A stretch of 64,000 nt of DNA from Deltaproteobacteria bacterium (GCA_015494395.1 WGBG01000167.1:1-64000), one strand, 5' to 3'; shown: positions 1,545 through 51,258, counted from the first letter of the stretch. Numbers and translations: made by a program. Notes: generated from the letters alone by a model not told the origin.

Positions 1545-1548
1545 GGAA

Positions 1549-22254: not shown

Positions 22255-22590
22255 CTATTCCGGCACGTACACCATGGTGCCGTCTCCAAGGCGGTAGGCA
22301 GTTCCAAGCCTCTGGCCCCTGCCACTGGTTTTGGCCCTGGAGACACGCATGGCCTCTATCTTCCTGCCTTTTTTTACTATAATTTCCATGTCTCCTTCCC
22401 CTGTCTGCCTGGTAATTGTCACGGTGGAGTCCTCTTTTAAAAGGTCCTCCAGGTGATACGTGGCAAAGAGGACAAGGAGCAGCCCTACGATAAAGACAAG
22501 CCCGATATCAAAGAGATTGGCCAGGCCGGTCATGGGATCATTATCGGAAAATCCGGTGCCCCGGTCCTGTTTACGCCTGAGATATTTCAT
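22255..22590 (-). CDS. Small bitopic membrane protein (DUF2149-like by recollection; ExbD-like topology)
   Basis: 111 aa. DPMTGLANLFDIGLVFIVGLLLVLF is a single TM segment followed by a soluble domain. ATGA overlap with the upstream MotA/ExbB gene. Confidence 0.65.
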   Translation of the reverse strand: MKYLRRKQDRGTGFSDNDPMTGLANLFDIGLVFIVGLLLVLFATYHLEDLLKEDSTVTITRQTGEGDMEIIVKKGRKIEAMRVSRAKTSGRGQRLGTAYRLGDGTMVYVPE

Positions 22591-23180: not shown

Positions 23181-23938
23181 TCCACTTTCTCCCTTGCTCT
23201 GCGGTTCTGCCGCTCCATGATTATCCCGATGCCAAAGGCCGCCGCTGCCCCGGCAACCAGCCAGGCAAGCTGATCTGCCCCAGGGCCACTGACAACACCA
23301 CCCTTGCTCAACCTGTAAATCCTCTTTGCATCATCAAAATGGGGAACAATGGCAATGGTCAGAAGAAAGTAGAGAGACAGCATTATCATGACAGTGCCGA
23401 GGCGGCGTTCCGCCCCGGCCCCATTGTTGAAAAACGCAAAAAATGCAGCGGATGCCAGCCCCATCACCACGAAAAGCACTGAGAGCAGAGGGAAAAGCAG
23501 GGCTGGTCCGGGCGAAAGTTTATCCAGCAGTGCGCCTGATAAAAAGATCACCGCAAGGCAGCCCGGGCATGGCGCAACCAGCGCCATCCATGCCCTGGTT
23601 TTTCCTGCTCCACTGCCATCCTTACAACGGTTGGGGAAGAGCAGGGCAGCACCCCAGGCAAACAGGATGGCCACCATGATAAAATGGAAGGCCATTATTC
23701 CCCTGAAGATAGAATCCAGGCTTTCAAGCCATGCAAGGGGATTAAACTTCTTAATTCCAAGCCATGCCACTGCAAATACCAGCAGGTAGAGCACAGCCCA
23801 GGCCAACGCCACACCGGCCTTCTGCAGCACGGTTTTTCTGCTGGAGAGCAGGTACGAAAGCCCTGCTCCGCTCTTTGCCGCAAATACTCCAAATGAAAAC
23901 AGCAATCCCAGTATCAGTGTTTTTGTTTCCATGATCAA
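23171..23938 (-). CDS. Polytopic inner-membrane protein (DUF2162-like predicted transporter by recollection)
   Basis: 255 aa with about 7 hydrophobic segments and a PCPGC motif. Overlaps both neighbours (4 nt and 10 nt). Confidence 0.65.
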   Translation of the reverse strand: MIMETKTLILGLLFSFGVFAAKSGAGLSYLLSSRKTVLQKAGVALAWAVLYLLVFAVAWLGIKKFNPLAWLESLDSIFRGIMAFHFIMVAILFAWGAALLFPNRCKDGSGAGKTRAWMALVAPCPGCLAVIFLSGALLDKLSPGPALLFPLLSVLFVVMGLASAAFFAFFNNGAGAERRLGTVMIMLSLYFLLTIAIVPHFDDAKRIYRLSKGGVVSGPGADQLAWLVAGAAAAFGIGIIMERQNRRAREKVEWN

Positions 23939-36032: not shown

Positions 36033-39000
36033 ATGAAGGAGGAGAGGAAGTTGCTGCTTGTTAAAGCAGTATTTTGTATTGCATTGGTTGTTATTGCAGC
36101 CATTCTACCAATATCCAATAATGGTGCTTCACGTGCTGAAGACCATCAAACAATTACTGCAAAGGGTCTGACCGGGCCGTGCCTCGGTGATCTTGATTTA
36201 GACCAGGACGTTGACGGCAGGGACCTTCAGCTCTTTCAGGATTACATACTGAATTTCCAAGCCCTTGCTGATATAAACAGCAGCGGGGCGTATGACCAGG
36301 AAGACGTTCAAGAGTTTGCCTTGGAGTTTGGAAGAACCGATTGTCCCGTCCTTGTCTTTGGCATAACTCCTGTTGCTATTCCATCTTCAGGCGCTGTGCC
36401 CCTTGAGGTAAGGTTTTCAGCAAATGTAGCAGGTGGCACACCTCCATACACTTTTTCATGGGACATCGATGGAGACGGGACCGCGGACGAGTCCCGTGAG
36501 ACCTTTTCTTATCTTTTCCTTGAGCCCGGGACATACAATATCCACGTTACCGCTTCTGACAGCGCGGATGGTAATGCCTCCGGCGACCTCACTGTCATAG
36601 CAATGCTCCCTCCTGAGGTCAGGGCATGGGCCTCTCCGCTTCGTGGCGCCTCTCCCCCCATGAATGTCTCCTTCTCCTGTTCCGCATCGGATCCCGACGG
36701 CGAAATCTCACTCTATGAATGGGATTTTGATGGAGACGGTGTGTTTGACTGGAGCAGTCACGAGACCTGCGAAGTGTCCCGTTCCTACAATACAAAGGGC
36801 GCCTTTGATGCAACAGTGAGGGTGACTGATGACCAGGGCCTATGGGTTACGGACACGGTTCACCTGTTCGTTGGCTCAAGGCCTTCCGTTTTTGCCTCGG
36901 CTGCCCCTATGTCCGGTTCAGCCCCCCTCAGGGTTGTTTTTTCAGCCAGGGCATCAGATGAGGATGGCGCTGTTACGCTCTATGAATGGGATTTTGATGG
37001 AGACGGTGTGTTTGACTGGAGCAGTAACCAGTCTGCTGATACTACCTATACTTTTGAGCAGGGTGGGGTGTTCAATGTCACGCTCCGGGTCACTGATGAT
37101 GACGGTATCACCTCGGAGGATACTGTTATAATATCCATTGCAGGGCCCCCTGTTCCCCTTCCATCTGCCTATCCCATTTCCGGTTCTGCCCCGTTACCAG
37201 TGACCTTTTTTGCAGATGGGGAGGATTATGACGGCAGCCCGAATACATTCCAGTGGGATTTTAATGGAGATGGTGTATTTGACTGGAGCAGTACAGATAC
37301 CTCCATTGCCACTTATACCTATGACCAGCCCGGAACATATTCTCCGGTGTTAAGGGTTACGGATAACCAGGGGGTTTTTGCCGACAAGGCCCTGGAGATA
37401 ACCGTTAATGCCCCAGGCCCGGAATCAGTGCTTACAGCCGTTCCTTTTGTCAGTCCTCCAAATGGCGCTGTTCCCCTGAGTGTGCATCTTATTGGCGGAG
37501 TAAACGCCCCTGATGGCCCGGTGTGTGAATATCAGTGGGACTTTCAGGGTGATGGCGTCTATGACTGGAGTGAAAATGTAAAATCTGCCGCCTCGCCTGG
37601 GCAGCCGACAATCAGAACAAGGGCTGCGGCAAGCCCGGTTTTTGCCGATCTTGACGGCGATGGTGATTATGACATGGTCCTGGGCGGGGATGATGGCAAG
37701 CTGAATCTTTATGAAAACCAGGGAACCAGATATGTCCCTGCTTTCCGCACAGCAGGCCAGGTGCGTGACTCTGAAGGCGACATAATAGATGTAGGCTTTC
37801 ACAGCCGACCAGCCTTTGGGGATATTGACGGTGATGGAGACCTTGATCTTGTCATTGGCAGTGAGGAGGGAACATTTATCCTCTACGAAAACAGGGGAGA
37901 TTCTGCACACGCATCCTGGGTGCTCTCCGGTCAGTTGATGAACTGCGTGAACGAACCGGTGGTAACAGATTATTACAGCTTCTCTGAGCTTGCTGATATT
38001 GATGCGGACGGTGACCTGGACCTTGTTTCAGGGGATTACTTTGGACAGGTGATCATCTTCCAAAACAGGGGGGATGCACATTCACCAAGATGGGCGTCTG
38101 GGGAGCCGGCTGTTGATGTCTGGGGCGATGTTATTGATGCCGGCTACTACAGTGCCCCAAGGCTTGTGGATATTGATGGAGATGGTGACCTGGACCTGCT
38201 CCTTGGTTGTGACAGTGGCAACATACGGCTTTACCTCAACCAGGGTGATTCCCACACGCCGGTCTGGGAGGAACAGGGTGAGCTTTCAGACATCCATGGT
38301 CAAACCATTGATGTTGGATATTACAGCAGGCCATTTTTTGTTGATATAGATGCAGACCGTGATCTTGACCTTTTTGGAGGCACAGGAGATGGTGGCATTG
38401 TTTACTTTGCCAACACAGGCAGCATGAGCCATGCGGTGTGGAGGCTTCTTTCCCTTCACTACAATGCAATAGGCACGGATTACAACTCTGCACCTTTTGC
38501 TGTTGATTTTGACCATGATGGTGATCTGGACCTCGTTACAGGGGATGAGGACGGCACCGTCTATTACTTTACCAATGAGGGAAACTCCACCGCTCCCGTC
38601 TGGGCGCCCCAGGGACGGATCATTGATGTTCAAGGGGATACTTTAAGTGTTGGTGGCAGAAGCCGTCCGGTGCTTGCAGACATTGATGGTGATGGTGATT
38701 ATGACCTCTTCGTTGGGTCTTCGTCAGGTGAGATCTTTTGGTCCAGAAATCTAGCAACAGGAGATGATGCGGCATGGCATGAGCCGGAACTGATGCATGA
38801 CAGTGCAAACAGTACGATTAATCCCGGTGCAAACAGCAAGCCCTTCCTGGCAGATATTGACTCTGACAATGACCTGGACCTCATTATCGGGACCCAGCAG
38901 GGCGCTGTCCTGCTTTACAGGAATGACGGGTCAGCCGCAGAACCATCGTTTGTAAATGCAGGAAGTATCTTGGACATCGACGGTCACGAGATAAACGTGG

Positions 39001-40595
39001 GCTCAGGCAGCAGCCCTTCCCTTTATGATATTGATTTTGATGGTGACCTTGATCTTTTCATCGGTGCAGATTCCGGCAAAATATTCCTGTTCAGAAATTC
39101 TGGAAGCCCGGAGGCTTACCTTTTTCAGCAGGAAGGCCAGTTCAGGGATTCTGCAGGCCAGCCTGTTTCTGTCAGTGGCAATGCTGTGCCAGCTATGGCA
39201 GACATGGACGGGGATGGTGATGGTGACCTGGTCACAGGGGACAGTTTTGGAAATATCACCCTGTTTGAAACGACCGGTACCATAACCCATGTGTACCTTC
39301 AGCCAGGTACATATCATCCCACCCTCAAGGTCAGGGAGTGTGGTGGCCGCACGGATTCTGATTCCATAACCGTTGAGGCAGGTCCTGATGGCGCGCCTTC
39401 TGCCATGTGTTCAGCAGAGCCTGAAAGCGGAACAGGCCCGCTTGATGTCAGTTTTACAGCCACTGCAACTGATACAGATGGAAACGTAACCCTGTTTGAA
39501 TGGGATTTTGATGGTGATGGCATCTATGACTGGAGCAGCAGTGAAACCGGTGACGTCATCCATACCTACAACAGGGTAGGGGTGTTTGAACCTGTCCTTC
39601 GTGTAACTGATAATGAAGGAAATTCCATTAAACAGGCGTTGAGCATAAGGGTAGAGCCAAGTATCACTGCCTCTGCAAGTGGTGCGGTGAACATTGCCCA
39701 CGGAGTTGCCGGGACCATTACCAGCAATCTTGGGGCCGGAGCCGTAGTGACCCTCCGCATAGTTGACCAGGCAGGAAATACAGTACGTACCATACTCCAT
39801 GACGTAGAGAGGGAGGCAGGGCAGTTTACAGATTCCTGGGACGGGCTTGATGACCAGGGCGCCCCTGTGCGTGACGGTGTGTATTTCTTCATACTTGAAG
39901 TCAATATAGATGGAAAGACCTGGACGTATGATAGGAGAATGGGTGCACCTTATCCTCGGGTAGTACCGAACAGGTCGTTTCCGTCAAGCTTCGCCCAGTA
40001 CGATGATCAATTTTTCCCAATAAGTTACAGCCTGTCACGTCCATCAGCAGTAAGCCTTTACATCAGGACAAACGGCACCAATGGGAATGCATTTGACCGG
40101 GTAAAGACCCTGCTCTCATGGGAGTACAGGTCAGCAGGCAGTCACGTGGAGATCTGGGATGGTACGGATGACAGAGGGGTTGCCGTGCCAGGCACCCTCC
40201 CTACTGGTGTTACCCTATGGGCATGGGAGCTTCCTGAAAGTGCCCTGGTGGTTACAGGGTCATCCCCCGAGATTACAGACCTGGGCGCTGATCCAAATTA
40301 CTTTAGCCCAGCGTATAATCCCTACGCAAGTGATCCAAACGACCATACTGCTGTATCCTTCACCATATCTGAGCCGTGTGATGTCCATGTCCATGTGAAG
40401 GATTCAGAGGGGCTTGTCATAAGACAGTTCACCCTTTCTTCCCTCCCTGAAGGCAGGGCAAATGTTGTGTGGGATGGCAGGAATGACGCAGGAAGCCTTG
40501 TCCCTGCAGGGCAGTACACCATTGGGATCACGGCAATAGACAGGGATGGAAATCGTTCGCCTACAAGGTACGCATCCGTAGTTCTGTTTTATTGA
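36033..40595 (+). CDS. Giant secreted protein: N-terminal dockerin-like module, PKD domains, about 12 FG-GAP/VCBS repeats, C-terminal FlgD-Ig-like domains
   Basis: 1520 aa with a signal/anchor sequence. DLDLDQDVDGRDLQLFQDYI...DINSSGAYDQEDVQEFALEFG. PKD signature (Y/F)EWDFDGDG(V/I)(F/Y)DWSS three times, plus divergent variants (FSWDIDGDGTADES, FQWDFNGDGVFDWSS, YQWDFQGDGVYDWSE). Iterated (A/G)D(L/I)DGDGD(Y/L)D(L/M)(V/L). C-terminal WDGxDDxGxxVxxGxY motifs. Confidence 0.85.
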   Translation: MKEERKLLLVKAVFCIALVVIAAILPISNNGASRAEDHQTITAKGLTGPCLGDLDLDQDVDGRDLQLFQDYILNFQALADINSSGAYDQEDVQEFALEFGRTDCPVLVFGITPVAIPSSGAVPLEVRFSANVAGGTPPYTFSWDIDGDGTADESRETFSYLFLEPGTYNIHVTASDSADGNASGDLTVIAMLPPEVRAWASPLRGASPPMNVSFSCSASDPDGEISLYEWDFDGDGVFDWSSHETCEVSRSYNTKGAFDATVRVTDDQGLWVTDTVHLFVGSRPSVFASAAPMSGSAPLRVVFSARASDEDGAVTLYEWDFDGDGVFDWSSNQSADTTYTFEQGGVFNVTLRVTDDDGITSEDTVIISIAGPPVPLPSAYPISGSAPLPVTFFADGEDYDGSPNTFQWDFNGDGVFDWSSTDTSIATYTYDQPGTYSPVLRVTDNQGVFADKALEITVNAPGPESVLTAVPFVSPPNGAVPLSVHLIGGVNAPDGPVCEYQWDFQGDGVYDWSENVKSAASPGQPTIRTRAAASPVFADLDGDGDYDMVLGGDDGKLNLYENQGTRYVPAFRTAGQVRDSEGDIIDVGFHSRPAFGDIDGDGDLDLVIGSEEGTFILYENRGDSAHASWVLSGQLMNCVNEPVVTDYYSFSELADIDADGDLDLVSGDYFGQVIIFQNRGDAHSPRWASGEPAVDVWGDVIDAGYYSAPRLVDIDGDGDLDLLLGCDSGNIRLYLNQGDSHTPVWEEQGELSDIHGQTIDVGYYSRPFFVDIDADRDLDLFGGTGDGGIVYFANTGSMSHAVWRLLSLHYNAIGTDYNSAPFAVDFDHDGDLDLVTGDEDGTVYYFTNEGNSTAPVWAPQGRIIDVQGDTLSVGGRSRPVLADIDGDGDYDLFVGSSSGEIFWSRNLATGDDAAWHEPELMHDSANSTINPGANSKPFLADIDSDNDLDLIIGTQQGAVLLYRNDGSAAEPSFVNAGSILDIDGHEINVGSGSSPSLYDIDFDGDLDLFIGADSGKIFLFRNSGSPEAYLFQQEGQFRDSAGQPVSVSGNAVPAMADMDGDGDGDLVTGDSFGNITLFETTGTITHVYLQPGTYHPTLKVRECGGRTDSDSITVEAGPDGAPSAMCSAEPESGTGPLDVSFTATATDTDGNVTLFEWDFDGDGIYDWSSSETGDVIHTYNRVGVFEPVLRVTDNEGNSIKQALSIRVEPSITASASGAVNIAHGVAGTITSNLGAGAVVTLRIVDQAGNTVRTILHDVEREAGQFTDSWDGLDDQGAPVRDGVYFFILEVNIDGKTWTYDRRMGAPYPRVVPNRSFPSSFAQYDDQFFPISYSLSRPSAVSLYIRTNGTNGNAFDRVKTLLSWEYRSAGSHVEIWDGTDDRGVAVPGTLPTGVTLWAWELPESALVVTGSSPEITDLGADPNYFSPAYNPYASDPNDHTAVSFTISEPCDVHVHVKDSEGLVIRQFTLSSLPEGRANVVWDGRNDAGSLVPAGQYTIGITAIDRDGNRSPTRYASVVLFY

Positions 40596-40650
40596 TGAAG
40601 GTATAAGTTTGAGAAATCAGGCTGTTTTATTGAGTAGCAGGAGGCATTAA

Positions 40651-43600
40651 GTGTCACGTTTTCCTTACAGACAGCAAGTTTCATTGATTGTTCTTGTAAC
40701 TTTCTGTTTCAGTATATTTACCACCGGTTTTGTTTTGCCGCACAGTGCAAGTGCTTATGATGTTTCAGGTGATCATGGCTCCACGACACCTAAGGGAAAT
40801 GATCCAAATAATCCTAATCCTGCCAATAAACCTGGACAAACTGGTGCTGCAGAGCCAGTTAATATAGCTAATGGTAATTTTTATTACGAACACAGGGATA
40901 CGTATATTGCTGGACGCATGCCGCTTGAAGTTACCAGAAAATACAATTCTCAGGATATGCGTGAGGGGCCTTTTGGGTATGGCTGGACATTTAATTATGA
41001 CTTTTTCCTCATGCCTTATTCGCATCAGGAGAGTGGGACAATTGCCACGGCTGAGGGATGGAAACTCTTTGGGCTGCAGCCAGGAGTCCGGCTGGATTTT
41101 AAGATATCCCCGGATCTACAAACTGTTATTCCACCCAAGGGCTACCATATAAGTTTGCAACCGTCATCAGATGGAGCAACTGTCAGGAAGAAAGACGGAA
41201 AGACCTACAGGTTTGACAATTCGGGCAGGCTGACGACAATTTCAGACAGGAACGGTAACAAGCTCTTATTTACTTATGACAATGCCGGGCGTCTCATCAC
41301 TGTTTCTGATGAATACGGTAGGCGCCTTAATTTCGAATATGGTGTCAATAACAAGATAACATCCATAACGGATCCAGCGGGCCGTGTATTCCGCTACCAT
41401 TACGATTCTAATAATAATCTTGTTACATATACTAATCCAGCCGGCTATAGCACCAGGTATTCATATGACCACCAGCACAGGCTGATCAGTATTACTAATG
41501 CCAAGGGTGTAACTTATCTGTCAAATACTTACGATTCCAAGAATAGGGTAACAGAACAGGTCTATAATGGTAACTCTTTCATATTTGAATATCACCCGGA
41601 TCAGAAATATACAAAAATGAGAGACCGAAGGGGTTTTTGGACAACTTATTACTACAATGATAATGGTAATGTTGAAAAAAAGATCGATCCATTAGGCAAT
41701 ACCACTCTTACTTCATGGGATGAAAATATCAATCCTGTCAGTGCTACGGATGCTAAGGGAAACGTCACCCAAAATGAATACGACAAAAATGGGAACCTGG
41801 TTTCTGTGACAGATCCTCTTGGCAATATAACCAGATTTACCTACGACTTACAGTATAACCATATAAAGACCATTACTGATGCTTTAGGTAATGTTACTAC
41901 CTATGATTATGATGAAATGGGAAATCTTGTTAAGATTACCGACGCATCAGGTAATATTACCACTTTTACCTATAATGAGAAGGGGGATTTACTTACCATA
42001 ACGGATACTCTTGGCAATACCACCTCCTTTTTATACGATGAATATGGAAGGTTGGTTTCAAAGACAGACCCGCTTGGTTATTCTGCTGCCTTTGAATACG
42101 ATGCTGTTGGCAACATAACATACTTTACAGACCAGGCCGGTCACGTAACACTCTTCTCTTATGATGTATCAGGCCATCAAACATCAGTTACCAATGCATT
42201 GGGAAATATTACAAGCTATGCCTATGACGAAAATGGAAACAGGATAGCATTAACTGACGCAGCTGGTCATGTAACAGAATTTCATTATGATGACTACAAT
42301 CAACTGGTTAAGAGAACAGACGCGCTTGGTAATAATGCAACCTTCACATACGATGAAAATGAAAACAGGATATCTGAAACTGATCCCCTAGGTAATGTAA
42401 CTACCTACCAATACGATGCCTTAGACAGGATAGTCCAGGTAACCGATGCCAGGGGGGTATCCACTCACTTTGAATATGATGAAAATGGTAATCTGATTAG
42501 CATAACAGACGGGAATGGCAATCAAACATCTTACCAATATGATGCCCTTAACAGAAAGATAAAGATAACTTATGCAAACGGTTCGACTGAAATATTTCGT
42601 TATGATGCTGTAGGAAATATCACGGAGAAAATTAATAGAAGGGCAGACAAGATTCGGTATCAATATGATTCCGTGCATCATCTAATCAAAAAAACATATC
42701 CTGATTCTACTGAGGTCACATTTTCCTATGATGCCCTTGGCAGATTAACCTCATTATCACAGCCTGGATGGAATATTTCATATACTTACGATGCCACAGG
42801 ACATGTAATTGATGAAAACCAGAATGGAAATGTTGTTTCCTATGAGTACGATGCCGTTGGTAACAGGATAAAGCTCATTTATCCTGACAATTCCTGGTTG
42901 ACCTATGCCTATGATGAACTTAACAGGCCGAACCAAATCAAGAATCAGACCGACATCGTGGTTGTGAGTTATGCCTATGATAGTCTGGGGAGAAGGACAG
43001 GGGTCGATTATCCCAATGGAACAGGTACGACCTACAGTTATGACGCTCTTAACAGGGTTACCTCTGTCAACAACAGCATCGTAAGCCCTGCATCTCTCAT
43101 ATCACGTTATACATACGGCTATAATTCGGCAGGCAACAGGAAATATGTTGTTTATGGTCATCGTGATAATCATGGTGATGTCTATACTTATGATTCCATT
43201 TATCAGTTGACAAATGTCAAGTATGACGTTGCTGACCCTGGTGCCGAATCACAGAGCCCCGGTTCGTCGAGTTTTGAGAGGCAAGTAACCTACAATTTTG
43301 ATAATGTATGGAATCGGACTTTCGTTACCCATGCAGACAATTCTACTGTTACCTACAGCTCAAATTCAGTGAACCAGTACACTGCTATTGATGGTTCAGT
43401 TCTTTCTTATGATTCCAGCGGAAACCTAGTTAGCGATGGCATTAATACCTATAAGTACGATTCTGAAAACAAGCTTATTCATGTCATCACCCCTGATAAT
43501 GACATAACCTACAAGTATGATCCTCTTGGAAGACGTGTTGAAAAGGATATCTCTGGCCATGTAGTCAGGTTTATTTATGACGGTCCCAGAGTAATCATGG

Positions 43601-44445
43601 AAACTGATCAGTCCGGTGAAGTGCAAGCCAAATATGTCTATGGAGCCGGTATTGATGAGGTAATTTCCATGACACGTACTTATCATGATTACTATTATCA
43701 TTTTGACGGCCTGGGCAGTGTCTCAGATATCACTGATGCAAATGGGACCACGGTCGAGTCGTACCAGTATGATGTTTACGGCAGGGCAACTATTCTTGAT
43801 GCGTATGGTCATCAGATAGTCGAAAGTTCTGTTGGCAATCCATATATGTTTACTGGCAGGAGGTACGATGCTGAAAGTGGCCTTTATAATTATCGTGCCC
43901 GTTATTATGATTCTGGATTTGGAAGATTCTTGCAGACAGATCCGATTGGGTATGTCGGGGGGCTTAATCTTTATACCTATGTTAAGAATAATCCGGTTAA
44001 TTGGGTGGATCCGTATGGATTGTGGACGATCCAAATCGGTGTTAGCGGTAGTGGAGGTGCTGGTGCTGGAGGGACTGCTGGTGGTGGTATAGTTTTTGGT
44101 TTTAGTTGGGAAAACGGTTTTCAGTTTGGAACCTATGAAGTCATTGGAGGAGGGGGGTATGGTGGAGTTGCTGCCTCTGGAACAATTGATATAACATTTT
44201 CAACTAATACTGACATTAATGATTTATCGGGAGGGGCGGGTACTGTTGGAGGCTCCGGAGGAGAAGGACTTTCCTTTGGTGGTGAGGTTAATATTCCGGA
44301 AGGTGACGCTGCTCCGTCATGGACTATTAGCGGTGGAATAGGCGCAGGCACTCCTATTGAGGAGCACGGTTTTTATACTTACACCTGGATTCAAGAGTGG
44401 ACTAACAAAAATAAAACAAAATCATGCAGCAACACTTCGAAATGA
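40651..44445 (+). CDS. Rhs/YD-repeat polymorphic toxin with Sec-type signal peptide and glycine-rich C-terminal domain
   Basis: 1264 aa. GTG start 6 nt after AGGAGG. N-terminus LIVLVTFCFSIFTTGFVLPHSASA. Dozens of YD repeats (YxYDxxGNL). Core-end motif YRARYYDSGFGRFLQTDPIGYVGGLNLYTYVKNNPVNWVDPYGL. The 140 aa from 44023 are 30% Gly. Confidence 0.92.
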   Translation: MSRFPYRQQVSLIVLVTFCFSIFTTGFVLPHSASAYDVSGDHGSTTPKGNDPNNPNPANKPGQTGAAEPVNIANGNFYYEHRDTYIAGRMPLEVTRKYNSQDMREGPFGYGWTFNYDFFLMPYSHQESGTIATAEGWKLFGLQPGVRLDFKISPDLQTVIPPKGYHISLQPSSDGATVRKKDGKTYRFDNSGRLTTISDRNGNKLLFTYDNAGRLITVSDEYGRRLNFEYGVNNKITSITDPAGRVFRYHYDSNNNLVTYTNPAGYSTRYSYDHQHRLISITNAKGVTYLSNTYDSKNRVTEQVYNGNSFIFEYHPDQKYTKMRDRRGFWTTYYYNDNGNVEKKIDPLGNTTLTSWDENINPVSATDAKGNVTQNEYDKNGNLVSVTDPLGNITRFTYDLQYNHIKTITDALGNVTTYDYDEMGNLVKITDASGNITTFTYNEKGDLLTITDTLGNTTSFLYDEYGRLVSKTDPLGYSAAFEYDAVGNITYFTDQAGHVTLFSYDVSGHQTSVTNALGNITSYAYDENGNRIALTDAAGHVTEFHYDDYNQLVKRTDALGNNATFTYDENENRISETDPLGNVTTYQYDALDRIVQVTDARGVSTHFEYDENGNLISITDGNGNQTSYQYDALNRKIKITYANGSTEIFRYDAVGNITEKINRRADKIRYQYDSVHHLIKKTYPDSTEVTFSYDALGRLTSLSQPGWNISYTYDATGHVIDENQNGNVVSYEYDAVGNRIKLIYPDNSWLTYAYDELNRPNQIKNQTDIVVVSYAYDSLGRRTGVDYPNGTGTTYSYDALNRVTSVNNSIVSPASLISRYTYGYNSAGNRKYVVYGHRDNHGDVYTYDSIYQLTNVKYDVADPGAESQSPGSSSFERQVTYNFDNVWNRTFVTHADNSTVTYSSNSVNQYTAIDGSVLSYDSSGNLVSDGINTYKYDSENKLIHVITPDNDITYKYDPLGRRVEKDISGHVVRFIYDGPRVIMETDQSGEVQAKYVYGAGIDEVISMTRTYHDYYYHFDGLGSVSDITDANGTTVESYQYDVYGRATILDAYGHQIVESSVGNPYMFTGRRYDAESGLYNYRARYYDSGFGRFLQTDPIGYVGGLNLYTYVKNNPVNWVDPYGLWTIQIGVSGSGGAGAGGTAGGGIVFGFSWENGFQFGTYEVIGGGGYGGVAASGTIDITFSTNTDINDLSGGAGTVGGSGGEGLSFGGEVNIPEGDAAPSWTISGGIGAGTPIEEHGFYTYTWIQEWTNKNKTKSCSNTSK

Positions 44446-44774
44446 TAATTAGTGTAATTGTACTTATTGTATCTTTATTTGTTGTCCTGGTAGGTATAGT
44501 TACTTTTGTTTATAATCTTAAGCTATATTTTTATCTCAAGAAAACTAACATAGAAAGATGGGAGGAGTTAACAACGATTGATAAATTTGGTCCAGGATTA
44601 TCGAATCCTTCTCGTTGGATTCCTTATTTATATAATGATGTTGATGAAAATGATCGCCAGATTCTTTTTTATAAAAAGACAATTCGTTTTTTGCTTTTCT
44701 GTTTTTTGGCAGGATTGTTATTTATTTTTATAATTCCGATTATACTATTTATGGTTACGAAATTAATTTTATAA
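44442..44774 (+). CDS. Candidate Rhs immunity protein (small membrane protein)
   Basis: The ATG at 44442 forms an ATGA overlap with the Rhs stop (alternative ATG at 44424). Two strongly hydrophobic segments (IISVIVLIVSLFVVLVGIVTFVY; FLLFCFLAGLLFIFIIPIILFMV). Very AT-rich. Confidence 0.6.
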   Translation: MIISVIVLIVSLFVVLVGIVTFVYNLKLYFYLKKTNIERWEELTTIDKFGPGLSNPSRWIPYLYNDVDENDRQILFYKKTIRFLLFCFLAGLLFIFIIPIILFMVTKLIL

Positions 44775-44885
44775 TCATTAATAAGTTGTATCTGCTATTT
44801 TTAGTAATTTATGGCTGGCTGCTAAATTTAGATAAATTGTTAATGATATAGAATAGCACAGATTAAGTAATATTAGAAAAATAAT

Positions 44886-45290
44886 ATGAAAGCTATGAAA
44901 TATATATTTATGTCTTGTGTTTTTCTTATGTCTTTTTTTGTTCAAATTTCTTCTGGTGATCAGTCGATAGTAAATAATTCTGGTAATATTACAATTAATG
45001 TCCATAATGGCTATGTTACCATTGGATATTTTCCCCCAGTTACTGAAATAGAATTAATAGAACGTTTAGCGCTTGATGCTGATTTCGGCCAAACCATCGT
45101 AGGGATTCCCCAGCTTTACGACGACGGAACCCATGGTGATAAAGTAGCTGATGACGGCACGTACTCCATAGAGATCAATATTCCGAAAGGGGCTAAACAG
45201 ATAAAGTTGCTGTTTTATGTACTCGATACTGATGGTAACGAAGTAGAAATTGGACCCGTGGTTAGAGAAATACCTTCTACTACTGAATAG
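44886..45290 (+). CDS. Small secreted protein of unknown function
   Basis: 134 aa. Signal peptide MKYIFMSCVFLMSFFVQISSG. DDGTHGDKVADDGTYS motif. Lies in the AT-rich islet. Confidence 0.55.
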   Translation: MKAMKYIFMSCVFLMSFFVQISSGDQSIVNNSGNITINVHNGYVTIGYFPPVTEIELIERLALDADFGQTIVGIPQLYDDGTHGDKVADDGTYSIEINIPKGAKQIKLLFYVLDTDGNEVEIGPVVREIPSTTE

Positions 45291-45459
45291 AGTATATCTA
45301 TATCTGCAGTAATAATTATCAAGAATAGATAATGAATATAAGTAACATATACTGAGATTTACATAAGATTAAGATGTATATCTTATGCAAATATATAATA
45401 GTTCCGTAAATAGATAACTTGTGCTTTTCTTTTGATTTTAAGAAGTTAGGAGAGGAGAG

Positions 45460-48400
45460 ATGAGAAGGGCTGTTTTATATTCTACTGTTTGTATTCTTGT
45501 TTCATTCATTTTGCCTTTAATGGTTAATGCCGCACCGTTTCCATTTGCAGACGACATGGAAGGCGGTGATTCCAACTGGGTGACAGACACCCCCTGGGCT
45601 GTTTCTGACACTGCGTCACACAGTGGTACCAGTGCGTTATGTGATAGCCCGGATGGATATTACCAAAATAATGCGGATGTTTCGGTTACCCTGAGTTCTC
45701 CTGTGGACCTCAGTGCCAGTGAAAACCCCATGCTCAAATTTTGGCACAGGTACCAGTTTGAAAATGACTATGACTTTGGCTACATGGAGGTCTCTGCGGA
45801 TAATGGCACTTCATGGACTACTGTTGCCACGTTTACAGGTACTTCCGGCGGAGGGACCCAGCCCGAATGGGTAATGGAGACCCTTCATCTCGATGCGTTC
45901 AAGAGTGAAACTGTATTAATCCGCTTCCGCCTCGTTTCGGACAAGACCGAAACCATGGACGGATGGTGCATTGATGATGTTGCCATTGCTGAGCAACCCC
46001 ATTCAGTAAGCCTTTCTGTTGACAATCCGTCTTCAACCTCCCTGGATTTAACATGGACCCGGAATCTTGATGATGCCACTACATTTGGGGCTTATAAAAT
46101 TTATCGCAGTGAAACCCCTCAGGTAGATTTTAACAGCACACTTGTGGCCAAGATAACAGATCAGGCAACCACCACGTTTACGGATACCACCCTGAAGCCG
46201 GAGCATACATATTTTTACAAGATTTATGTGGTAAATGCCTTTGAAATGTATCAGGCCAGCAAGGTTGCGTCTGGCACAACTGACACGGCTGATTATGAAC
46301 ATGGATATAAATGGGATTTTGAGAATGGTGCGTCCGGCTGGACATTCAGCGGAGACTGGTCTGTAACAGACGAAGATTCACATGGAGACTCAGGGAGCTG
46401 CATTACAGACAGTCCTTCAGGTGAGAGCTACAATAACAGCATTGATTATTCAGCCATTGTTACAGTTGATCTTGGGGCCTTTGTACGTCCACTCTTGTCA
46501 TTCTGGAATCGTTACAGTCTTGAGTCCTATCATGATTATGGCTGGGTGGAGGTATCCAGCGATGGTGGCAGTCACTGGAAAAGGCTCTTTTTCGTTACCG
46601 GTGCATCCTATGGTAGATGGCTCAAGGAGGAGATAGACCTTTCTGAATACGCCGGGTTTGAAATCTTGATCAGGTTCAGAATAACCTCTGATAATAATGG
46701 TGTTACCAACGATGGCTGGTATATAGATGATGTTGAGATAAGTGAGAATAACGCGGTAACTGCATATCCATTTTTTGATAACTTTGAGGAAGAAACTTCA
46801 AACTGGATATTTTCTTCATGGGGTCGGATAGCTAATGGTGGCAATACAGGACTGTGGTCAGTCACCGATAGTCCTTCTGGTTCCATTGGTTCGAGGGTAT
46901 ATTCTTCCATGACCCTTCGGGGGACTTTCGACCTTTTGGCTGCCTCAAATCCTAAGTTGAGTTTTTGGTACAAGTTTGACGCATATTCATCTGATTATTT
47001 GGGTGTGTATGTATCTATAAATTGGGGTCATACCTGGAATAAAATCTGGGAACGTGGTGGTGATACGAACAATTGGACCAATGTTACCTTGGACCTCTCT
47101 CCATATCGTTCGGCGCATGTACTTATCAGGTTTCAAGTTGATGATAGAGGAAATGGGAATGGTAACGGTGCATGGATAGATGATATTCTCATTGATGATG
47201 CGCCTTTGGACGTTTTGTTAAATGAACCTGACCACATAACGGAACACAGCATTACCCTGAGCTGGACAGAATCGCCTGATTCGGATTTTGAGGAGTACAG
47301 GCTTTACAGGAGTACCAGCACAGGAATAACAGGCAATCGCCCAGAGGATGTCTTAGTTGCTGAAATTGACTCTCTGAATCAAACGTCATTTACTGACAAC
47401 CTGGACTATCCTGATAGGACCTACTATTACCGGGTTTTCATAGGGGATATCCAGGGGTTAGTCAGTGCTGGCAGTAATGAAATCAGTGCAGCAACCCTGA
47501 GTGGTACAGAATTGGAAAGCTTTCCGTTTTCAGATGACATGGAAAGTGGAGACAGGTGGGGCAATGTGCTTCCCTGGGCTTTGACCGACGAAGATGCCCA
47601 CAGTGGCACTCATTCGTTTACTGACAGTCCTTACGGGAATTATGAAAATAATATAGACAAATCCATTGTTGCTCATATTGACCTTGGCAATTCAGTACGT
47701 CCTCTCTTGTCATTCTGGCATCGTTACAGCTTTGAATCTTACCATGATTTTGGCTGGCTGGAGGTATCTCGTGATGGTGGTAGTAATTGGAAAAGGGTCT
47801 TTTTTGTTACTGGTGCATCATATGCTGAATGGTTTAAGGACGAGGTAGATCTTTCCGAATATGCCGGCTCTGATATTTTGATCAGGTTCAGAATAACCTC
47901 TGATAATAATGGTGTTACCAACGATGGCTGGTACATAGATGACGTAGAAATAGTCGAAAATACAGAGGTGGCTCCGTATCCGTTTTTTGATGGATTTGAA
48001 GGAGATGGATCAAACTGGATTCTTTCTTCCTGGAAGTCTTATTCCTCAGATTCTTACCAGGGTATCTGGTCGGTTACCGACAGTCCTGTGGGGGTTATGG
48101 GGAGCTGGGTAAATTCAGCCATGACTCTCAGGGGATTGATCGATTTGATAGATGTGTCAAATCCCAAGTTGAGTTTCTGGTACAAGTTTGATGCAAACTC
48201 TGGGGATTATTTATGCGTGTATATCTCAACTAATAGAGGCAACACATGGACAAGAATATGGCAGTTTGGTAACACTTCTGATCGTACTGATTGGACCAAT
48301 GTCCAGTTGGATCTTTCGCCATACCGTTCCTCACGTGTAAGTATTAAGTTCCAGGTAGAGGATCGGGGTGGTGGAAATGGCGGGGGAGCATGGATAGACA

Positions 48401-51258
48401 ATGTTCTGATAGATGATGCCCCGGTAGATGTGTTGATGAATGTTCCAGAAAATATCGGGGAACATGGCATGACAGTAAGCTGGAGTGAGTTCCCTTATAC
48501 CGATTTTTTGATGTACAGATTATATAGAAGTACAAGTCCCGGAATTACTGGTCAACGTACTGAAGATGTGCTGATTGCCGAGATTACTAATCGTTCGCAG
48601 GTTACTTTTACCGATACTTTGGATGATCCAGGTACTACCTATTATTACAGGATTTTCGTTGATGATGCCCAGGGTTTTACAAGTAAAGGCAGTAATGAGG
48701 TAAGTGCTACCACACTTTTGGGGATTTCTGATCAAGGGTATCCCATGTCAGATGACATGGAAAGCGGTGACAACTGGGCCAACAGTTTCCCTTGGCAGTT
48801 GACTGCAGAAGATGCCCACAGTGGCACTCATGCATTTTCGGACAGTCCAGACGGCAATTATGAAAATAATATTGATAGGTCTTTGATGACTGTTGTTGAC
48901 CTTAGTAGAGCAAACCGTCCTCTTTTATCTTTCTGGCACCGTTACAGTTTTGAAACTTACCATGATTTTGGCTGGGTAGAGGTGTCCAGTGATGGCGGAA
49001 GTAATTGGACAAGGCTCTTTTTTGTGACCGGTGCATCATACGGTGAATGGCTGAAGGAGGAGATAGACCTTTCTGAATATGCCGGGTCTGAAATCCTGAT
49101 CAGGTTCAGAATAACCTCTGATAATAACGGTATTACCAACGATGGTTGGTACATAGATGATGTACAGGTTACAGAGAATACCGCTACAACAGTATTTCCA
49201 TTCGTGGAGAATTTTGAGCAGGGAGCCAGGGCAAACTGGATCCTGGCAAGTTGGCGTGATGAGTTGTCAGATAATGCGCATGAAGGTCGTTATGCCGTTA
49301 CAGACAGCGCTCTTGGTAATATGGGCGATGGGGTCCATAACCGTATTACTCTCAGAGGCTCAATTGACTTGTTGAATGCTGTAAATCCAAAGCTCAGTTT
49401 CTGGTATAAATTTAATGGTGGCAGGTATGACCATTTATTTGTTGATATATCTACTGATGGAGGGCATCACTGGACACAAATTTGGAATCTGGATGCGGGA
49501 TGGAATGGTCTGAACCGGCCTGACTGGTCCCGTGTAGAGCTGGACTTGTCCCCATATCGTTCCCGGAATGTAGTTATAAGGTTTAACGTATGTGACTGTG
49601 GAGACTGGGATGGTAATGGTGCCTGGCTTGACGACATTTCAATCTCAGGCGCTGAGGGCCTGTTTGAAAGCATCTCCATTGATCCAGGTGAGCAGAGTGT
49701 GCTTATAGGTGATACCATACAGTTTTCAGCAACAGGCATAGATCATGAGGGCAATTCTGCTCCGGTTGATCCGCGGCTCGTTACATGGGGAGTGCGCGGG
49801 GATATAGGCATAATCAACGAGGATGGTTTGTTTACCGCTGTAAATCCAGGCATAGGTGCAGTAACAGCCACATACGGTAATGGTATTTCAGACATAACCG
49901 GCATAATAGAGGTCGTACAGCCGGCCGGAGGAACCCCGCAGATAGAGGGCGGCAACGTGACCCTTTCTGACGCATCGGTTCCGGCAGACCGTAGCCTCTA
50001 TTTTAAGGCATATATCGCAGAGCGGCCTGATGAAATACTGAGCCAGTCCTCAGCGGGATGCGCTTATGGCAGTGGGCATTGGCAGGTGAACCTGGCCAAC
50101 TTCCCCACCGCATGGATTCCTGGTGAACACCTGCACCTGGATTTTATTGATTCGGTAAATGGAGAAACTGCCTCTCTTGAGTATGCGCTTACCTATGGAG
50201 GCCAGGCTCATGATGTTGTTCTTGCACCTGTGAGCTATCAGTTAATTACAACGCCTGTCACAGATCTTAATGCAATAACACTGTTTAAGGACAGCGGGGT
50301 CTCCAATGCCGAGGAGCTTGCGCAGGCAATCCCCAATGCCCTGGAGATATACTACTGGGATGCGGTGCACCAGGCGTATATTGGCCACAGCAAGGGCTCT
50401 CCCCTCATGAACTTCCAGGTAAAGCCAGGGTATCCGTACCTTGTTTCAGTAAGCGCTCCAGGCACCTGGACACCAACGGGCAGCATGCCTGTCCCGTGGC
50501 CTGAATTTGGTCTGATTACCACCGGGGCCACGGATGTAAACATGATAACCATTCCTCCAAGGATGCAGCGTATTACCAATGCAGAGGAGTTGGGAAACCT
50601 TGTTCCAGAGTGCACGGAGGTTACCGTATGGGATGCTGAGAACCAGGGATACGTGGGACACAGCTACGGAACGCCACTTTATAACTTTGACCTGGATATT
50701 CTCAGGCCTGTCTTCATTACTGTAACTGATGAGAGTACACTGCAGATGAAGGAGACTGTTTCCAAGGGCGCTGGCAGTGGTATTCCCCAGAACGAAGGTG
50801 GATATGTCTATGCAAGTGACGGCACAGTGCTCTCAACAGGTGATGTAACATTCCGTGCCTGGATTGTTGGAAGGGAAGATGATGTTCTCACCAATGATAG
50901 TGTAGGGTGCGGCTTCATGGATGGTTACTGGCAGATCAATGTCGGTAACTTTGCCACACCGTGGCGTGCCGGTGACCTGGTGCGTGTTGAATGCAGTGCC
51001 GGTGACCAGTCAGGCAGCCTTGAATTCTACCTGGACTGGAATGGCAGCACCCATCGGGATATTCACCTTGGTGAGAGTATAATGCCTGCCGGAGCCGACC
51101 TGGATGGTGATATTGATGGTGAAGATATTGCTATTCTCGCTAAGTCCTATGGCAGCAAGCCCGGTGATGCCTGTTACAACTCCTTCTGTGATGTGAACGG
51201 TAATGATGCTGTAGATGCCCAGGATCTGGAGGCATTCGCAGAAGGCTTTGGGAAGTAG
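45460..51258 (+). CDS. Giant secreted protein: iterated MAM/jelly-roll-like + FN3 modules, Big_2-like domain, paired unknown modules, C-terminal dockerin-like module
   Basis: 1932 aa with a signal peptide. Three tandem ~405-aa units, each with two jelly-roll-like domains (DDMESGD.W...SFWHRYSFE.YHDFGW.EVS.DGGSNW...IRFRITSDNNG.TNDGWYIDDV) and one FN3 (YRLYRSTS.GITG). Big_2-like IQFSATGIDHEGN. C-terminal DLDGDIDGEDIAILAKSYG...DVNGNDAVDAQDLEAFAEGFG. Confidence 0.88.
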   Translation: MRRAVLYSTVCILVSFILPLMVNAAPFPFADDMEGGDSNWVTDTPWAVSDTASHSGTSALCDSPDGYYQNNADVSVTLSSPVDLSASENPMLKFWHRYQFENDYDFGYMEVSADNGTSWTTVATFTGTSGGGTQPEWVMETLHLDAFKSETVLIRFRLVSDKTETMDGWCIDDVAIAEQPHSVSLSVDNPSSTSLDLTWTRNLDDATTFGAYKIYRSETPQVDFNSTLVAKITDQATTTFTDTTLKPEHTYFYKIYVVNAFEMYQASKVASGTTDTADYEHGYKWDFENGASGWTFSGDWSVTDEDSHGDSGSCITDSPSGESYNNSIDYSAIVTVDLGAFVRPLLSFWNRYSLESYHDYGWVEVSSDGGSHWKRLFFVTGASYGRWLKEEIDLSEYAGFEILIRFRITSDNNGVTNDGWYIDDVEISENNAVTAYPFFDNFEEETSNWIFSSWGRIANGGNTGLWSVTDSPSGSIGSRVYSSMTLRGTFDLLAASNPKLSFWYKFDAYSSDYLGVYVSINWGHTWNKIWERGGDTNNWTNVTLDLSPYRSAHVLIRFQVDDRGNGNGNGAWIDDILIDDAPLDVLLNEPDHITEHSITLSWTESPDSDFEEYRLYRSTSTGITGNRPEDVLVAEIDSLNQTSFTDNLDYPDRTYYYRVFIGDIQGLVSAGSNEISAATLSGTELESFPFSDDMESGDRWGNVLPWALTDEDAHSGTHSFTDSPYGNYENNIDKSIVAHIDLGNSVRPLLSFWHRYSFESYHDFGWLEVSRDGGSNWKRVFFVTGASYAEWFKDEVDLSEYAGSDILIRFRITSDNNGVTNDGWYIDDVEIVENTEVAPYPFFDGFEGDGSNWILSSWKSYSSDSYQGIWSVTDSPVGVMGSWVNSAMTLRGLIDLIDVSNPKLSFWYKFDANSGDYLCVYISTNRGNTWTRIWQFGNTSDRTDWTNVQLDLSPYRSSRVSIKFQVEDRGGGNGGGAWIDNVLIDDAPVDVLMNVPENIGEHGMTVSWSEFPYTDFLMYRLYRSTSPGITGQRTEDVLIAEITNRSQVTFTDTLDDPGTTYYYRIFVDDAQGFTSKGSNEVSATTLLGISDQGYPMSDDMESGDNWANSFPWQLTAEDAHSGTHAFSDSPDGNYENNIDRSLMTVVDLSRANRPLLSFWHRYSFETYHDFGWVEVSSDGGSNWTRLFFVTGASYGEWLKEEIDLSEYAGSEILIRFRITSDNNGITNDGWYIDDVQVTENTATTVFPFVENFEQGARANWILASWRDELSDNAHEGRYAVTDSALGNMGDGVHNRITLRGSIDLLNAVNPKLSFWYKFNGGRYDHLFVDISTDGGHHWTQIWNLDAGWNGLNRPDWSRVELDLSPYRSRNVVIRFNVCDCGDWDGNGAWLDDISISGAEGLFESISIDPGEQSVLIGDTIQFSATGIDHEGNSAPVDPRLVTWGVRGDIGIINEDGLFTAVNPGIGAVTATYGNGISDITGIIEVVQPAGGTPQIEGGNVTLSDASVPADRSLYFKAYIAERPDEILSQSSAGCAYGSGHWQVNLANFPTAWIPGEHLHLDFIDSVNGETASLEYALTYGGQAHDVVLAPVSYQLITTPVTDLNAITLFKDSGVSNAEELAQAIPNALEIYYWDAVHQAYIGHSKGSPLMNFQVKPGYPYLVSVSAPGTWTPTGSMPVPWPEFGLITTGATDVNMITIPPRMQRITNAEELGNLVPECTEVTVWDAENQGYVGHSYGTPLYNFDLDILRPVFITVTDESTLQMKETVSKGAGSGIPQNEGGYVYASDGTVLSTGDVTFRAWIVGREDDVLTNDSVGCGFMDGYWQINVGNFATPWRAGDLVRVECSAGDQSGSLEFYLDWNGSTHRDIHLGESIMPAGADLDGDIDGEDIAILAKSYGSKPGDACYNSFCDVNGNDAVDAQDLEAFAEGFGK

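Follow-up and report, generated by a model that had tools for sequence, protein, structure and literature searches.

The Rhs bacteriocin Bcn-A of Xanthomonas perforans is found as an activity of over 100 kDa in the culture supernatant; a mutant defective in type II secretion (xpsD) lacks this activity. Its immunity protein, ORF5, is a predicted inner-membrane protein (PMC7259588). Another well-described Rhs protein is Tse5 of Pseudomonas aeruginosa, with the immunity protein Tsi5, whose pore-forming C-terminal toxin depolarises membranes; the Tse5 structure paper also assigned DUF6531 the role of a plug and defined the aspartyl-protease motif, DPxGx18-19DPxG (PMC10684867). Tse5 shows that membrane-active cargo exists among Rhs proteins. 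WapA of Bacillus subtilis and Streptococcus suis (named in PMC12704120 and PMC7259588) represents Sec-dependent YD-repeat toxins. Among proteins other than Rhs toxins, VapA of Rhodococcus equi permeabilises membranes and thereby collapses proton gradients (PMC10100859), and the Vap barrels expose a glycine-rich, 'bald' surface that binds lipids and detergents (PMC4118825). Tse4, TspA/EsxX and the Caulobacter CdzC/D proteins are described as glycine-rich, membrane-depolarising toxins with membrane-embedded immunity proteins.

We analysed a 64-kb stretch of DNA recorded as deltaproteobacterial (the window), which carries an Rhs gene and an overlapping small gene, both on the plus strand. The Rhs gene is complete and encodes 1264 residues from a GTG start (40651-44445), with a Shine-Dalgarno sequence, AGGAGG (40639-40644), read directly in the sequence 6 nt upstream. 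The protein begins with MSRFPYRQQ, an n-region with two arginines, followed by a 20-residue hydrophobic core and PHSASA|YD with alanine at -3 and -1. These n-, h- and c-regions and the -3/-1 rule fit a Sec signal peptide spanning residues 1-35 (40651-40755), predicted here by inspection rather than from a predictor score. A short Pro/Asn/Gly-rich linker (residues 36-67, 32 residues; 40756-40851) has no Pfam or NCBIfam match and holds no trafficking domain, PAAR or VgrG-related region recognised by either library. It leads into DUF6531 (residues 68-133; 40852-41049; PF20148, E 1.2e-19), which, by the precedent of Tse5, plugs the cage on its N-terminal side. The YD/RHS-repeat shell occupies residues 134-1049 (41050-43797), where RHS_repeat (PF05593, E 6.5e-138) matches in 21 stretches and TIGR01643 in 17, and the protein can be aligned to solved Rhs cages, for instance to 7q97 across residues 81-1137. 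The Rhs-associated core, the C-terminal plug (residues 1050-1124; 43798-44022; TIGR03696, E 3.6e-26), contains the protease motif as DPIGx19DPYG (residues 1097-1123; bases 43939-44019, located by regular expression) and ends with ...NPVNWVDPYGL at base 44022, which predicts a cut after L1124. The predicted toxin domain follows (residues 1125-1250; 44023-44400); it is rich in glycine, and AlphaFold2 models it as eight beta-strands and a single short helix. The gene closes with a lysine-rich, cysteine-containing disordered tail, TNKNKTKSCSNTSK, and a TGA stop codon (44401-44445; pLDDT about 51 in this last block). With its repeats, both plugs, the protease motif, a swapped tip and a candidate immunity gene downstream, the protein is, by its sequence features, a polymorphic toxin of the Rhs/YD-repeat type. 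The signal peptide and the end of the core thus lie where the original prediction had placed them.

The cage, the DUF6531 plug and the self-cleaving DPxGx19DPxG core are shared with Tse5. [quoted passage not shown] By sequence, a Tse5-type pore-forming tip was rejected, as a profile search with the tip against all PDB sequences, including 8cp6, returned nothing at E<=10. Delivery by a T6SS found no support in the protein or the window: Pfam and NCBIfam scans found no PAAR, VgrG-binding or prePAAR domain at the N-terminus, and none of about 45 open reading frames in the 64-kb window matched a T6SS family (vgrG, hcp, tss or chaperone genes), as had been proposed on both counts before these scans. 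The window also lacks gsp (type II secretion) genes. A TonB-dependent receptor, the 90% cluster of which bears the name Thiolapillus sp., ExbB and an LptC-like protein mark a host with two membranes. This host is taken to be a Thiolapillus-like gammaproteobacterium, a sulfur oxidiser from a vent. WapA proteins resemble the protein in the window in being YD-repeat polymorphic toxins with a Sec signal and an immunity gene downstream, but their hosts lack an outer membrane, and the proteins themselves have cell-wall-binding domains and, where characterised, nuclease tips. Because the host here has an outer membrane, an export step beyond that of WapA would be required. GC content falls to 0.36-0.45 across the Rhs gene and to 0.25 across the downstream gene, compared with about 0.51 upstream, suggesting that the pair was acquired horizontally. 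The Rhs gene is surrounded by genes for giant secreted adhesin-like proteins.

Glycine accounts for 36 of the 140 residues of the tip (residues 1125-1264; 25.7%); the proportion is 28.6% in the 126 residues that fold and 8.2% in the remainder of the protein. The tip is therefore glycine-rich and contains the glycine runs quoted originally, although the 30% first given was slightly high. It was also correctly described as unrecognised, because it matched nothing in Pfam, NCBIfam, PHROGs or the PDB sequences, and profile searches of Pfam, NCBIfam and the PDB assigned it to no known enzyme family. Homologues elsewhere reach E-values of 1e-39 for the tip and 1e-65 for the product of the downstream gene, so that neither is a chance open reading frame. 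The tip family comprises 298 representatives (clusters at 50% identity) at E<=1e-3, and in 96 of the 127 full-length domains a DPxG junction directly precedes the tip. Signal-like N-termini occur in all eight full-length relatives (8/8); five of the full-length relatives scanned against Pfam all had the RHS architecture, four with DUF6531, two with a transglutaminase-like domain and none with PAAR. Judged from these comparisons, the tip is a real polymorphic-toxin domain of an uncatalogued family, which is modular across Rhs backbones.

Most invariant positions of the family are glycines. Polar residues also stand out from the Gly/Ser/Thr background: E113, H115, S60, S78 and T121 are conserved in more than 90% of the members, and Q4, Q34, D56, N62 and E88 are nearly invariant. 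The ExH pair is missing from a few members (P0020, P0109 and P0132). The barrel in the window carries 12 acidic residues and almost no lysine or arginine, so that an uncharged or acidic barrel precedes a polybasic tail; such tails are common in the family, with lysine plus arginine at 14.7% in the tails against 3% in the barrels. Part of the variable face of the last strand carries charge, as might be expected if the protein were soluble.

In glycine-zipper toxins, the GxxxG motifs belong to hydrophobic helices or to aggregates. The tip differs from them, as AlphaFold2 modelled it with high scores (pLDDT 93.2, pTM 0.83) as an all-beta domain, and a relative with 42% identity gave the same strand pattern (pLDDT 85.2). 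In both models, the glycine runs form long beta-hairpins rather than hydrophobic helices; all 11 GxxxG spacings of the tip lie inside predicted strands, and no glycine-zipper Pfam family matched any of 68 family members at E<=1. These results do not support a glycine-zipper tip, nor, with it, this part of the original prediction. The best Foldseek matches of both models were VapB and VapG, at a probability of 0.92-0.99, and the Vap proteins (VapA, B, D and G; R_equi_Vir) were their only high-probability structural neighbours. The match is marginal by its other measures, with TM 0.41-0.53, E 0.025-0.07 and r.m.s.d. 5.6-7.5 Å. The resemblance lies in the eight strands, the helix between strands 4 and 5, the abundance of glycine and an aromatic residue at the end; the DSSP pattern of the two models has the eight-stranded closed barrel and the single helix after strand 4 typical of Vap proteins. 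By contrast, the first four strands of the tip are much longer, and the connections between strands 1-2, 2-3, 3-4, 5-6 and 7-8 are only 0-3 residues long. Such short connections suggest that the modelled domain might be a simple up-and-down meander rather than follow the Vap order 1-2-3-8-5-6-7-4, in which strands 4 and 8 are swapped. The Vap proteins also differ in being stand-alone secreted or surface proteins of an actinobacterium, which act on host endolysosomes without an immunity partner. At the level of sequence, the tip does not belong to the Vap family: the Vap Pfam family (R_equi_Vir) matched neither the tip nor 67 relatives, and hhalign of the tip against VapA/B/D/G gave a probability of 0.4%, that is, no sequence relationship.

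The downstream gene (44424-44774) encodes 110 residues from the ATG that overlaps the Rhs stop codon as ATGA (44442-44445), or 116 residues from a second in-frame ATG at 44424. Hydropathy divides the product into a first transmembrane helix (44442-44513), a loop (44514-44687) and a second transmembrane helix (44688-44756), with Kyte-Doolittle maxima over 19 residues of 3.4 and 3.1. No Pfam family matches it. In the family, the loop rather than the helices is conserved (YLKK..RW..LTTIG..GPG.SN), and lysines and arginines on both of its sides predict a cytoplasmic location. A two-helix homologue lies directly downstream of the tip in ten further loci (L001, L005, L006, L007, L010, L017, L020, L022, L023 and L024), thus in 11 loci including the window, with tips 44 to 74% identical to that in the window. 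Orphan tip-immunity cassettes follow a full Rhs gene in L007, an orphan copy of the immunity gene occurs in L003/L004, and the immunity gene is still intact beside decayed toxins. Because of this synteny, the orphan copy and the survival next to decayed toxins, there is strong sequence-level evidence that the two-helix protein is the cognate immunity protein, which upholds the early proposal of an overlapping gene for a membrane immunity protein of about 110 residues with two very hydrophobic helices. Two distant tip variants are followed by unrelated proteins, which are also membrane proteins.

A payload attacking membranes is still the preferred guess, though on grounds that differ from those first given: the immunity candidates are all embedded in the membrane, the Vap proteins are the only structural neighbours, and an uncharged or acidic barrel is joined to a polybasic tail. 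The chances of a membrane-acting payload nevertheless seem to us roughly balanced, because several observations speak against it. The barrel with its acidic residues is not obviously lipid-exposed, the most conserved polar residues could be catalytic, the conservation in the predicted cytoplasmic loop of the immunity protein also fits a toxin that reaches the cytoplasm, and the Vap match is marginal and without sequence homology. The catalytic option would make the beta domain an enzyme or a tight binder at the periplasmic face, acting on a lipid-linked cell-wall precursor or an integral membrane protein, with the two-helix protein occupying or shielding this target. Many polymorphic toxins are enzymes, and the soluble-looking, acidic barrel and the ten nearly invariant polar positions named above could accommodate such an activity; yet the tip matches no enzyme family in Pfam, NCBIfam or the PDB, the ExH pair is missing from three members and the invariant positions are mainly glycine, which leaves this explanation rather unlikely. 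A toxin acting in the cytoplasm, captured on the inner side of the membrane by the conserved loop of the immunity protein, would explain why the loop rather than the helices is conserved and why it is flanked by basic residues on both sides. We consider it clearly improbable: no subdomain for entry or translocation can be recognised in the tip of the window protein, whose barrel begins at the residue that follows the cleavage site, the unrelated partners of the distant variants are membrane proteins as well, and immunity proteins of cytoplasmic toxins are usually soluble.

Inserting the tip itself into the outer membrane of the target, as a miniature outer-membrane-type barrel forming a leak, might be suggested by the eight long amphipathic strands of the AlphaFold2 model and by an aromatic among the last three residues in 26 of the 42 relatives ending right after the barrel, resembling the beta-signal of outer-membrane proteins. 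Such insertion is very improbable, given Foldseek probabilities of 0.06 or less for barrels of the OmpX, OmpA and OprG types, only about three large hydrophobic residues per strand, a polar tail of 14 residues beyond the last strand of the window protein and an immunity protein that is alpha-helical and of the inner-membrane type. The adhesin-like neighbours and the action of Vap proteins on eukaryotic endolysosomes could also be taken to mean that the Rhs protein is an adhesin or an anti-eukaryote factor, followed by an unrelated small membrane protein. There is scarcely any chance of this in view of the tight synteny in 11 loci, the orphan arrays behind full Rhs genes and the orphan immunity copy, and the decayed toxins beside intact immunity genes, all of which are hallmarks of an interbacterial toxin-immunity module. 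That the pair forms a genuine module of this kind is, in our judgement, very probable, and its tip family and two-helix partner would most likely constitute a new membrane-attacking antibacterial weapon.

The computed results are the domain architecture of the Rhs protein and its cleavage motif, the tip family and its modularity, the all-beta prediction and the toxin-immunity synteny. The whole explanation that we prefer, a horizontally acquired, T6SS-independent and Sec-exported Rhs toxin with a membrane-acting tip and its immunity protein, may be right or wrong with about equal probability. The precursor would be exported via Sec, with the signal peptide removed after Ala35, and the YD shell would fold into a cage, with DUF6531 closing one end and the Rhs core the other. 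The aspartyl-protease motif of the core might then cut after L1124 and leave the tip, some 140 residues long, loose within the cage. Most likely, the loaded cage would be exported as a bacteriocin that diffuses away or stays exposed at the surface, for which type II secretion offers a precedent. By analogy, Bcn-A appears to be the best functional model for this delivery, being a large Rhs/YD protein of a gammaproteobacterium with no tie to a T6SS and with a membrane immunity protein like the pair in the window, and the dependence of its release on type II secretion gives a route across the outer membrane a published precedent. Bcn-A differs in requiring three accessory open reading frames, none of which was seen at the locus in the window, and a signal peptide, evident on inspection here, is not reported for it (PMC7259588). 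Export by Sec followed by a type II-like release is accordingly put forward only tentatively, with chances somewhat short of even. In a competitor, the tip might act on the cytoplasmic membrane and collapse ion or proton gradients. The producer and its kin would be protected by the two-helix protein of the inner membrane, which would be translated together with the toxin and whose predicted topology leaves both termini outside and turns the conserved loop towards the cytoplasm.

A few relatives of the tip follow other pre-toxin junctions, of the type GGKFxxGA...FN, and one of them has a weak DUF637 match.

Rhs toxins of two-membrane bacteria have been studied almost entirely as cargo of type VI secretion systems (T6SS), and enzymes make up most of the payloads known from them. 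The ORF at 40651–44445 on the plus strand encodes a complete Rhs protein of 1264 residues with a GTG start and the sequence AGGAGG located 6 nt upstream. Pfam identified 21 stretches of RHS-repeat (E 6.5e-138) and DUF6531 at residues 68–133, and NCBIfam assigned the Rhs-associated core to residues 1050–1124, in which the motif DPIGx19DPYG spans residues 1097–1123 and is followed by L1124. According to the cryo-EM paper on Tse5, an Rhs effector of Pseudomonas aeruginosa, the DPxG-type core motif is an aspartyl protease cutting the toxin free, and DUF6531 is the N-terminal plug of the Rhs cage (PMC10684867). Over its body, the protein can be aligned to solved Rhs cages such as 7q97 (residues 81–1137), and no solved protein aligns beyond approximately residue 1137. 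The N-terminus is composed of MSRFPYRQQ, a 20-residue hydrophobic run, and PHSASA-YD, which we read, by inspection only, as a Sec signal with a predicted cut after Ala35, and only a 32-residue Pro/Asn-rich linker connects it to the plug. Neither Pfam nor NCBIfam detected PAAR, a VgrG-binding domain, or any other trafficking domain in the Rhs protein, and T6SS families had no match among the approximately 45 ORFs across the window that were scanned for domain families. The original prediction of a Sec-type Rhs protein with neither PAAR nor VgrG linkage, in a window lacking T6SS genes, was thereby confirmed.

The C-terminal toxin domain with its tail (residues 1125–1264, bases 44023–44445; hereafter the tip, numbered from its own first residue) contains 25.7% glycine, compared with 8.2% in the rest of the protein, and its first 126 residues include 12 Asp/Glu and not a single Lys or Arg. 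The tip had been described as unrecognised, and this description held: it matched no family above threshold in Pfam, NCBIfam, or PHROGs, its profile found nothing at E≤10 among PDB sequences, and 68 members of the tip family matched no Pfam family at E≤0.01. Six relatives were found by single-sequence search; when a profile was run against 1.84 billion representatives, the number rose to 298 at E≤1e-3, of which 143 reached E≤1e-10. The domain starts directly after the DPxG(L) junction in 96 of 127 full-length matches, typically as DPxGL followed by WT(L/F/I)QIG; some relatives carry a spacer of 20–90 residues ahead of the domain, and a few have a GGKFxxGA....FN junction instead, one of which also gave a weak match to DUF637 (hemagglutinin, E 0.009). 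These junction motifs and the one weak match offer a lead that some relatives might be mounted on CdiA-like carriers. Signal-peptide-like N-termini were present in all eight full-length relatives, and among the five scanned against Pfam, RHS repeats were found in all, DUF6531 in four, a transglutaminase-like domain in two, and PAAR in none. Because the relatives share the signal-like N-termini and the Rhs architecture, the combination of the tip with a Sec-type Rhs carrier is characteristic of the family and not peculiar to this genome. Polybasic tails follow the barrel in 85 of 127 relatives (14.7% K+R, against 3% in the barrel family-wide). The tail of the window tip (44401–44442) reads TNKNKTKSCSNTSK, and in 18 relatives within the set P0001–P0155 a Cys occurs among the 10 C-terminal residues, with endings such as ...PCK, ...CGH, and ...KCKK. 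We regard the tip as a real toxin domain absent from all the curated libraries tried.

The ORF directly 3' of the Rhs gene (44424–44774, plus strand) could start at either ATG 44424 or ATG 44442, the latter overlapping the TGA stop codon of the Rhs gene as ATGA. It encodes two strongly hydrophobic helices on either side of a loop of ~58 residues. No family in Pfam, NCBIfam, or PHROGs matched above threshold; a sub-threshold match to CD20 was dismissed because it appeared in only one of eight family members and looks like hydrophobic bias. Close copies of the product have 97% and 80% identity. Some of the related loci were retrieved with a three-sequence alignment, which reaches close relatives only. 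In ten listed loci, homologues with 23–42% identity share the loop motif YLKK..RW..LTTIG..GPG.SN and lie directly downstream of the tip domain (L001, L005 on the Desulfobacter chromosome OY759748.1, L006 of Thiomargarita, L007 in an orphan array behind a complete Rhs gene, L010, L017, L020 with a decayed tip, L022, L023, and L024), and the tips across these loci are 44–74% identical to the window copy. At L007 (39–9768), the 1755-aa Rhs protein with a transglutaminase-like domain, DUF6531, and RHS is followed by orphan tip-immunity cassettes, one belonging to the tip family under study and others paired with HEAT_2 proteins. At L020 (480–1700), the toxin has decayed by a stop codon in place of Trp after the DPxGL/DPxEL junction and by frameshifts, and the two-helix gene is intact; at L023 (1–1010), the tip copy (P0001) contains a garbled, frameshift-like internal stretch directly upstream of an intact two-helix gene. 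The 80%-identical immunity copy of L003/L004 (e.g., L004 3–2477) stands alone without a toxin upstream and comes after an unrelated Rhs tip with its DUF8220 partner and an MNT/HepT toxin-antitoxin pair. In the distant tip variants L013 and L018, the downstream proteins are unrelated to the two-helix family, yet they are also membrane proteins. The synteny, the decayed toxins with an intact partner, the orphan copy, and the membrane partners in variants together constitute a classic toxin-immunity signature, in agreement with the earlier designation of the overlapping ORF as a membrane immunity candidate. In the window itself, a six-frame HMM scan found one copy each of the tip and the immunity gene and no further copies. 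In the immunity protein, Lys and Arg are concentrated at the two loop ends and missing from the N-terminus, so both termini are predicted by the positive-inside rule to face outward and the loop to be cytoplasmic. As read from sequence, we consider a complete gene for an Rhs cage predicted to cleave itself, a modular tip, and a co-inherited membrane partner to be established.

The AlphaFold2 model of the tip from a 68-sequence alignment (pLDDT 93.2, pTM 0.83) predicts strands at 2–28 and 32–60, each as one long hairpin, a one-turn helix at 65–68, strands at 70–79, 82–92, 99–109, and 112–125, and then a disordered Lys-rich tail. A 42%-identical tip, chosen as a divergent member for checking the reproducibility of the fold and of its structural match, was modelled independently and gave the same strand pattern (pLDDT 85). 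Since both models have this pattern, the glycine runs are predicted to lie in beta-strands and not in helices, and the glycine-zipper-like reading of the original prediction had to be abandoned. Conservation follows a pattern in which one face of each strand has exchangeable large hydrophobic residues and, on the opposite face, Gly is near-invariant and alternates with Thr, Ser, or Gln; D56, S60, N62, S78, E88, E113, H115, and T121 stand out as conserved polar residues. In the Foldseek comparison envisaged for the tip, nothing in the PDB matched at E≤1e-3; the virulence-associated proteins VapB and VapG of Rhodococcus equi were the only high-probability matches in both searches (probability 0.92–0.99, TM 0.41–0.53, rmsd 5.6–7.5 Å), and the match was reproduced with the second model. 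Vap proteins fold as closed barrels of eight strands and a single helix, with a C-terminal Trp and a detergent-binding surface that is rich in glycine and described as "bald" (PMC4118825), and VapA permeabilises membranes, thereby collapsing proton gradients (PMC10100859). Profile-profile comparison between the tip and Vap proteins indicated no relationship (hhalign probability 0.4%), and hhalign of the first half of the tip against the second found no internal duplication resembling the Vap pseudo-twofold symmetry. Vap proteins have an unusual strand order; the very short strand connections in the tip model argue for a plain meander. For these reasons, "Vap-like" is a fold-level lead, not family membership. 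That the tip is the founding member of a widespread toxin family, Vap-like beta-barrels with a glycine face that collapse the bacterial proton gradient without a classical pore, is a speculative and rather improbable proposal. If it were true, the enigmatic Vap virulence factors of R. equi would share structure and mechanism with an antibacterial polymorphic-toxin domain, and a Vap-related domain would be moved by Rhs (Sec/type II secretion) and CdiA-like carriers and neutralised inside the membrane by a two-helix protein.

Several observations point indirectly to a membrane as the target of the tip: all loci examined have immunity candidates embedded in the membrane, the Vap proteins as sole structural neighbours are membrane-permeabilising, the barrel has hardly any Lys or Arg whereas the tails are polybasic, and in the window tip the barrel follows the cleavage site with no entry subdomain in between. 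With its charges distributed in this way between barrel and tail, the tip would be well suited to bind anionic lipids of bacteria. The main alternative is an enzymatic or target-binding toxin, as might be expected from E113 and H115, which are more than 90% conserved; the conserved immunity loop, predicted to be cytoplasmic, suggests in turn that the tip could act in the cytoplasm. The terminal aromatic residues of many relatives are reminiscent of an outer-membrane-type barrel, which we disfavour because both the fold searches and the helical immunity protein speak against it. The orphan and decay patterns of the tip and immunity genes likewise disfavour a non-toxin role for the Rhs protein and its partner. 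A membrane-active payload would represent a non-helical means of depolarising bacteria and provide a genetically tractable toxicity/immunity system for how Vap-like barrels disturb membranes.

For a membrane-active tip, we envisage that the Rhs precursor would be exported by Sec and the cage would fold in the periplasm, that the loaded protein would be released from the producer cell, and that the freed beta domain would act on the cytoplasmic membrane of the target. The route across the outer membrane, called unknown in the original prediction, is not without precedent: the Rhs/YD protein Bcn-A of Xanthomonas perforans (1398 aa) is active in the supernatant at >100 kDa, a type II secretion mutant loses this activity, and the inner membrane is the predicted location of the Bcn-A immunity protein (PMC7259588). 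Bcn-A is the sole experimental precedent for an Rhs protein crossing the producer's outer membrane. In the module of the window, a Sec-type Rhs carrier is joined to a predicted toxin family of beta-barrel fold and to a two-helix immunity family, both of them new. Three features depart from the usual Rhs picture: an uncatalogued toxin domain that has ~300 distinct relatives and whose all-beta fold is predicted with confidence, the shared signal-like N-termini, which point to a neglected T6SS-independent deployment of Rhs cages, and a dedicated two-helix membrane immunity family.

The window matched contig JALUIT010000117.1 of the NCBI assembly GCA_027041665.1. It encodes a TonB-dependent receptor, ExbB, and an LptC-like protein, which show that the host has an outer membrane; the receptor belongs to a 90%-identity cluster named Thiolapillus sp. 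(a gammaproteobacterium) by NCBI, and the other ORFs scanned include an ABC transporter, BatD, and FtsY. The GC content falls from ~0.51 upstream to 0.36–0.45 over the Rhs gene and 0.25 over the immunity ORF, which suggests that both genes were acquired from elsewhere. It is 0.25–0.35 at 44500–45450, covering the immunity gene and the following intergenic/small-ORF stretch, with flanks of 0.45–0.52, consistent with an imported cassette. A promoter/terminator scan gave counts no different from those of shuffled sequence. Two giant secreted proteins flank the Rhs gene, at 36033–40595 and 45460–51258; one has 1520 aa with six PKD, ~10 FG-GAP, and two FlgD-Ig domains, and the other has 1932 aa with MAM/choice-of-anchor J repeats, fn3, Big_2, and dockerin. 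The stretch at 44886–45290 encodes a small protein that has a signal peptide and a choice-of-anchor X domain. Elsewhere in the window, a CRISPR array at 23–400 contains at least six repeats of GAAACACCCCCACGGGCGTGGGGAAGAA with a 61-nt period and adjoins a complete type I-E cas operon (669–8647, minus strand: cas1, cas5, cas7 (CT1975), cas6e, cse2, cse1, and cas3). A Fic/DOC-domain protein is encoded at 9415–10227, and a cobalamin/metal-chelatase uptake cluster at 13694–26040 comprises CbiK, CobN, ExbB, DUF2162, the TonB-dependent receptor, and two Peripla_BP_2 proteins, one of them fused to CbiZ.
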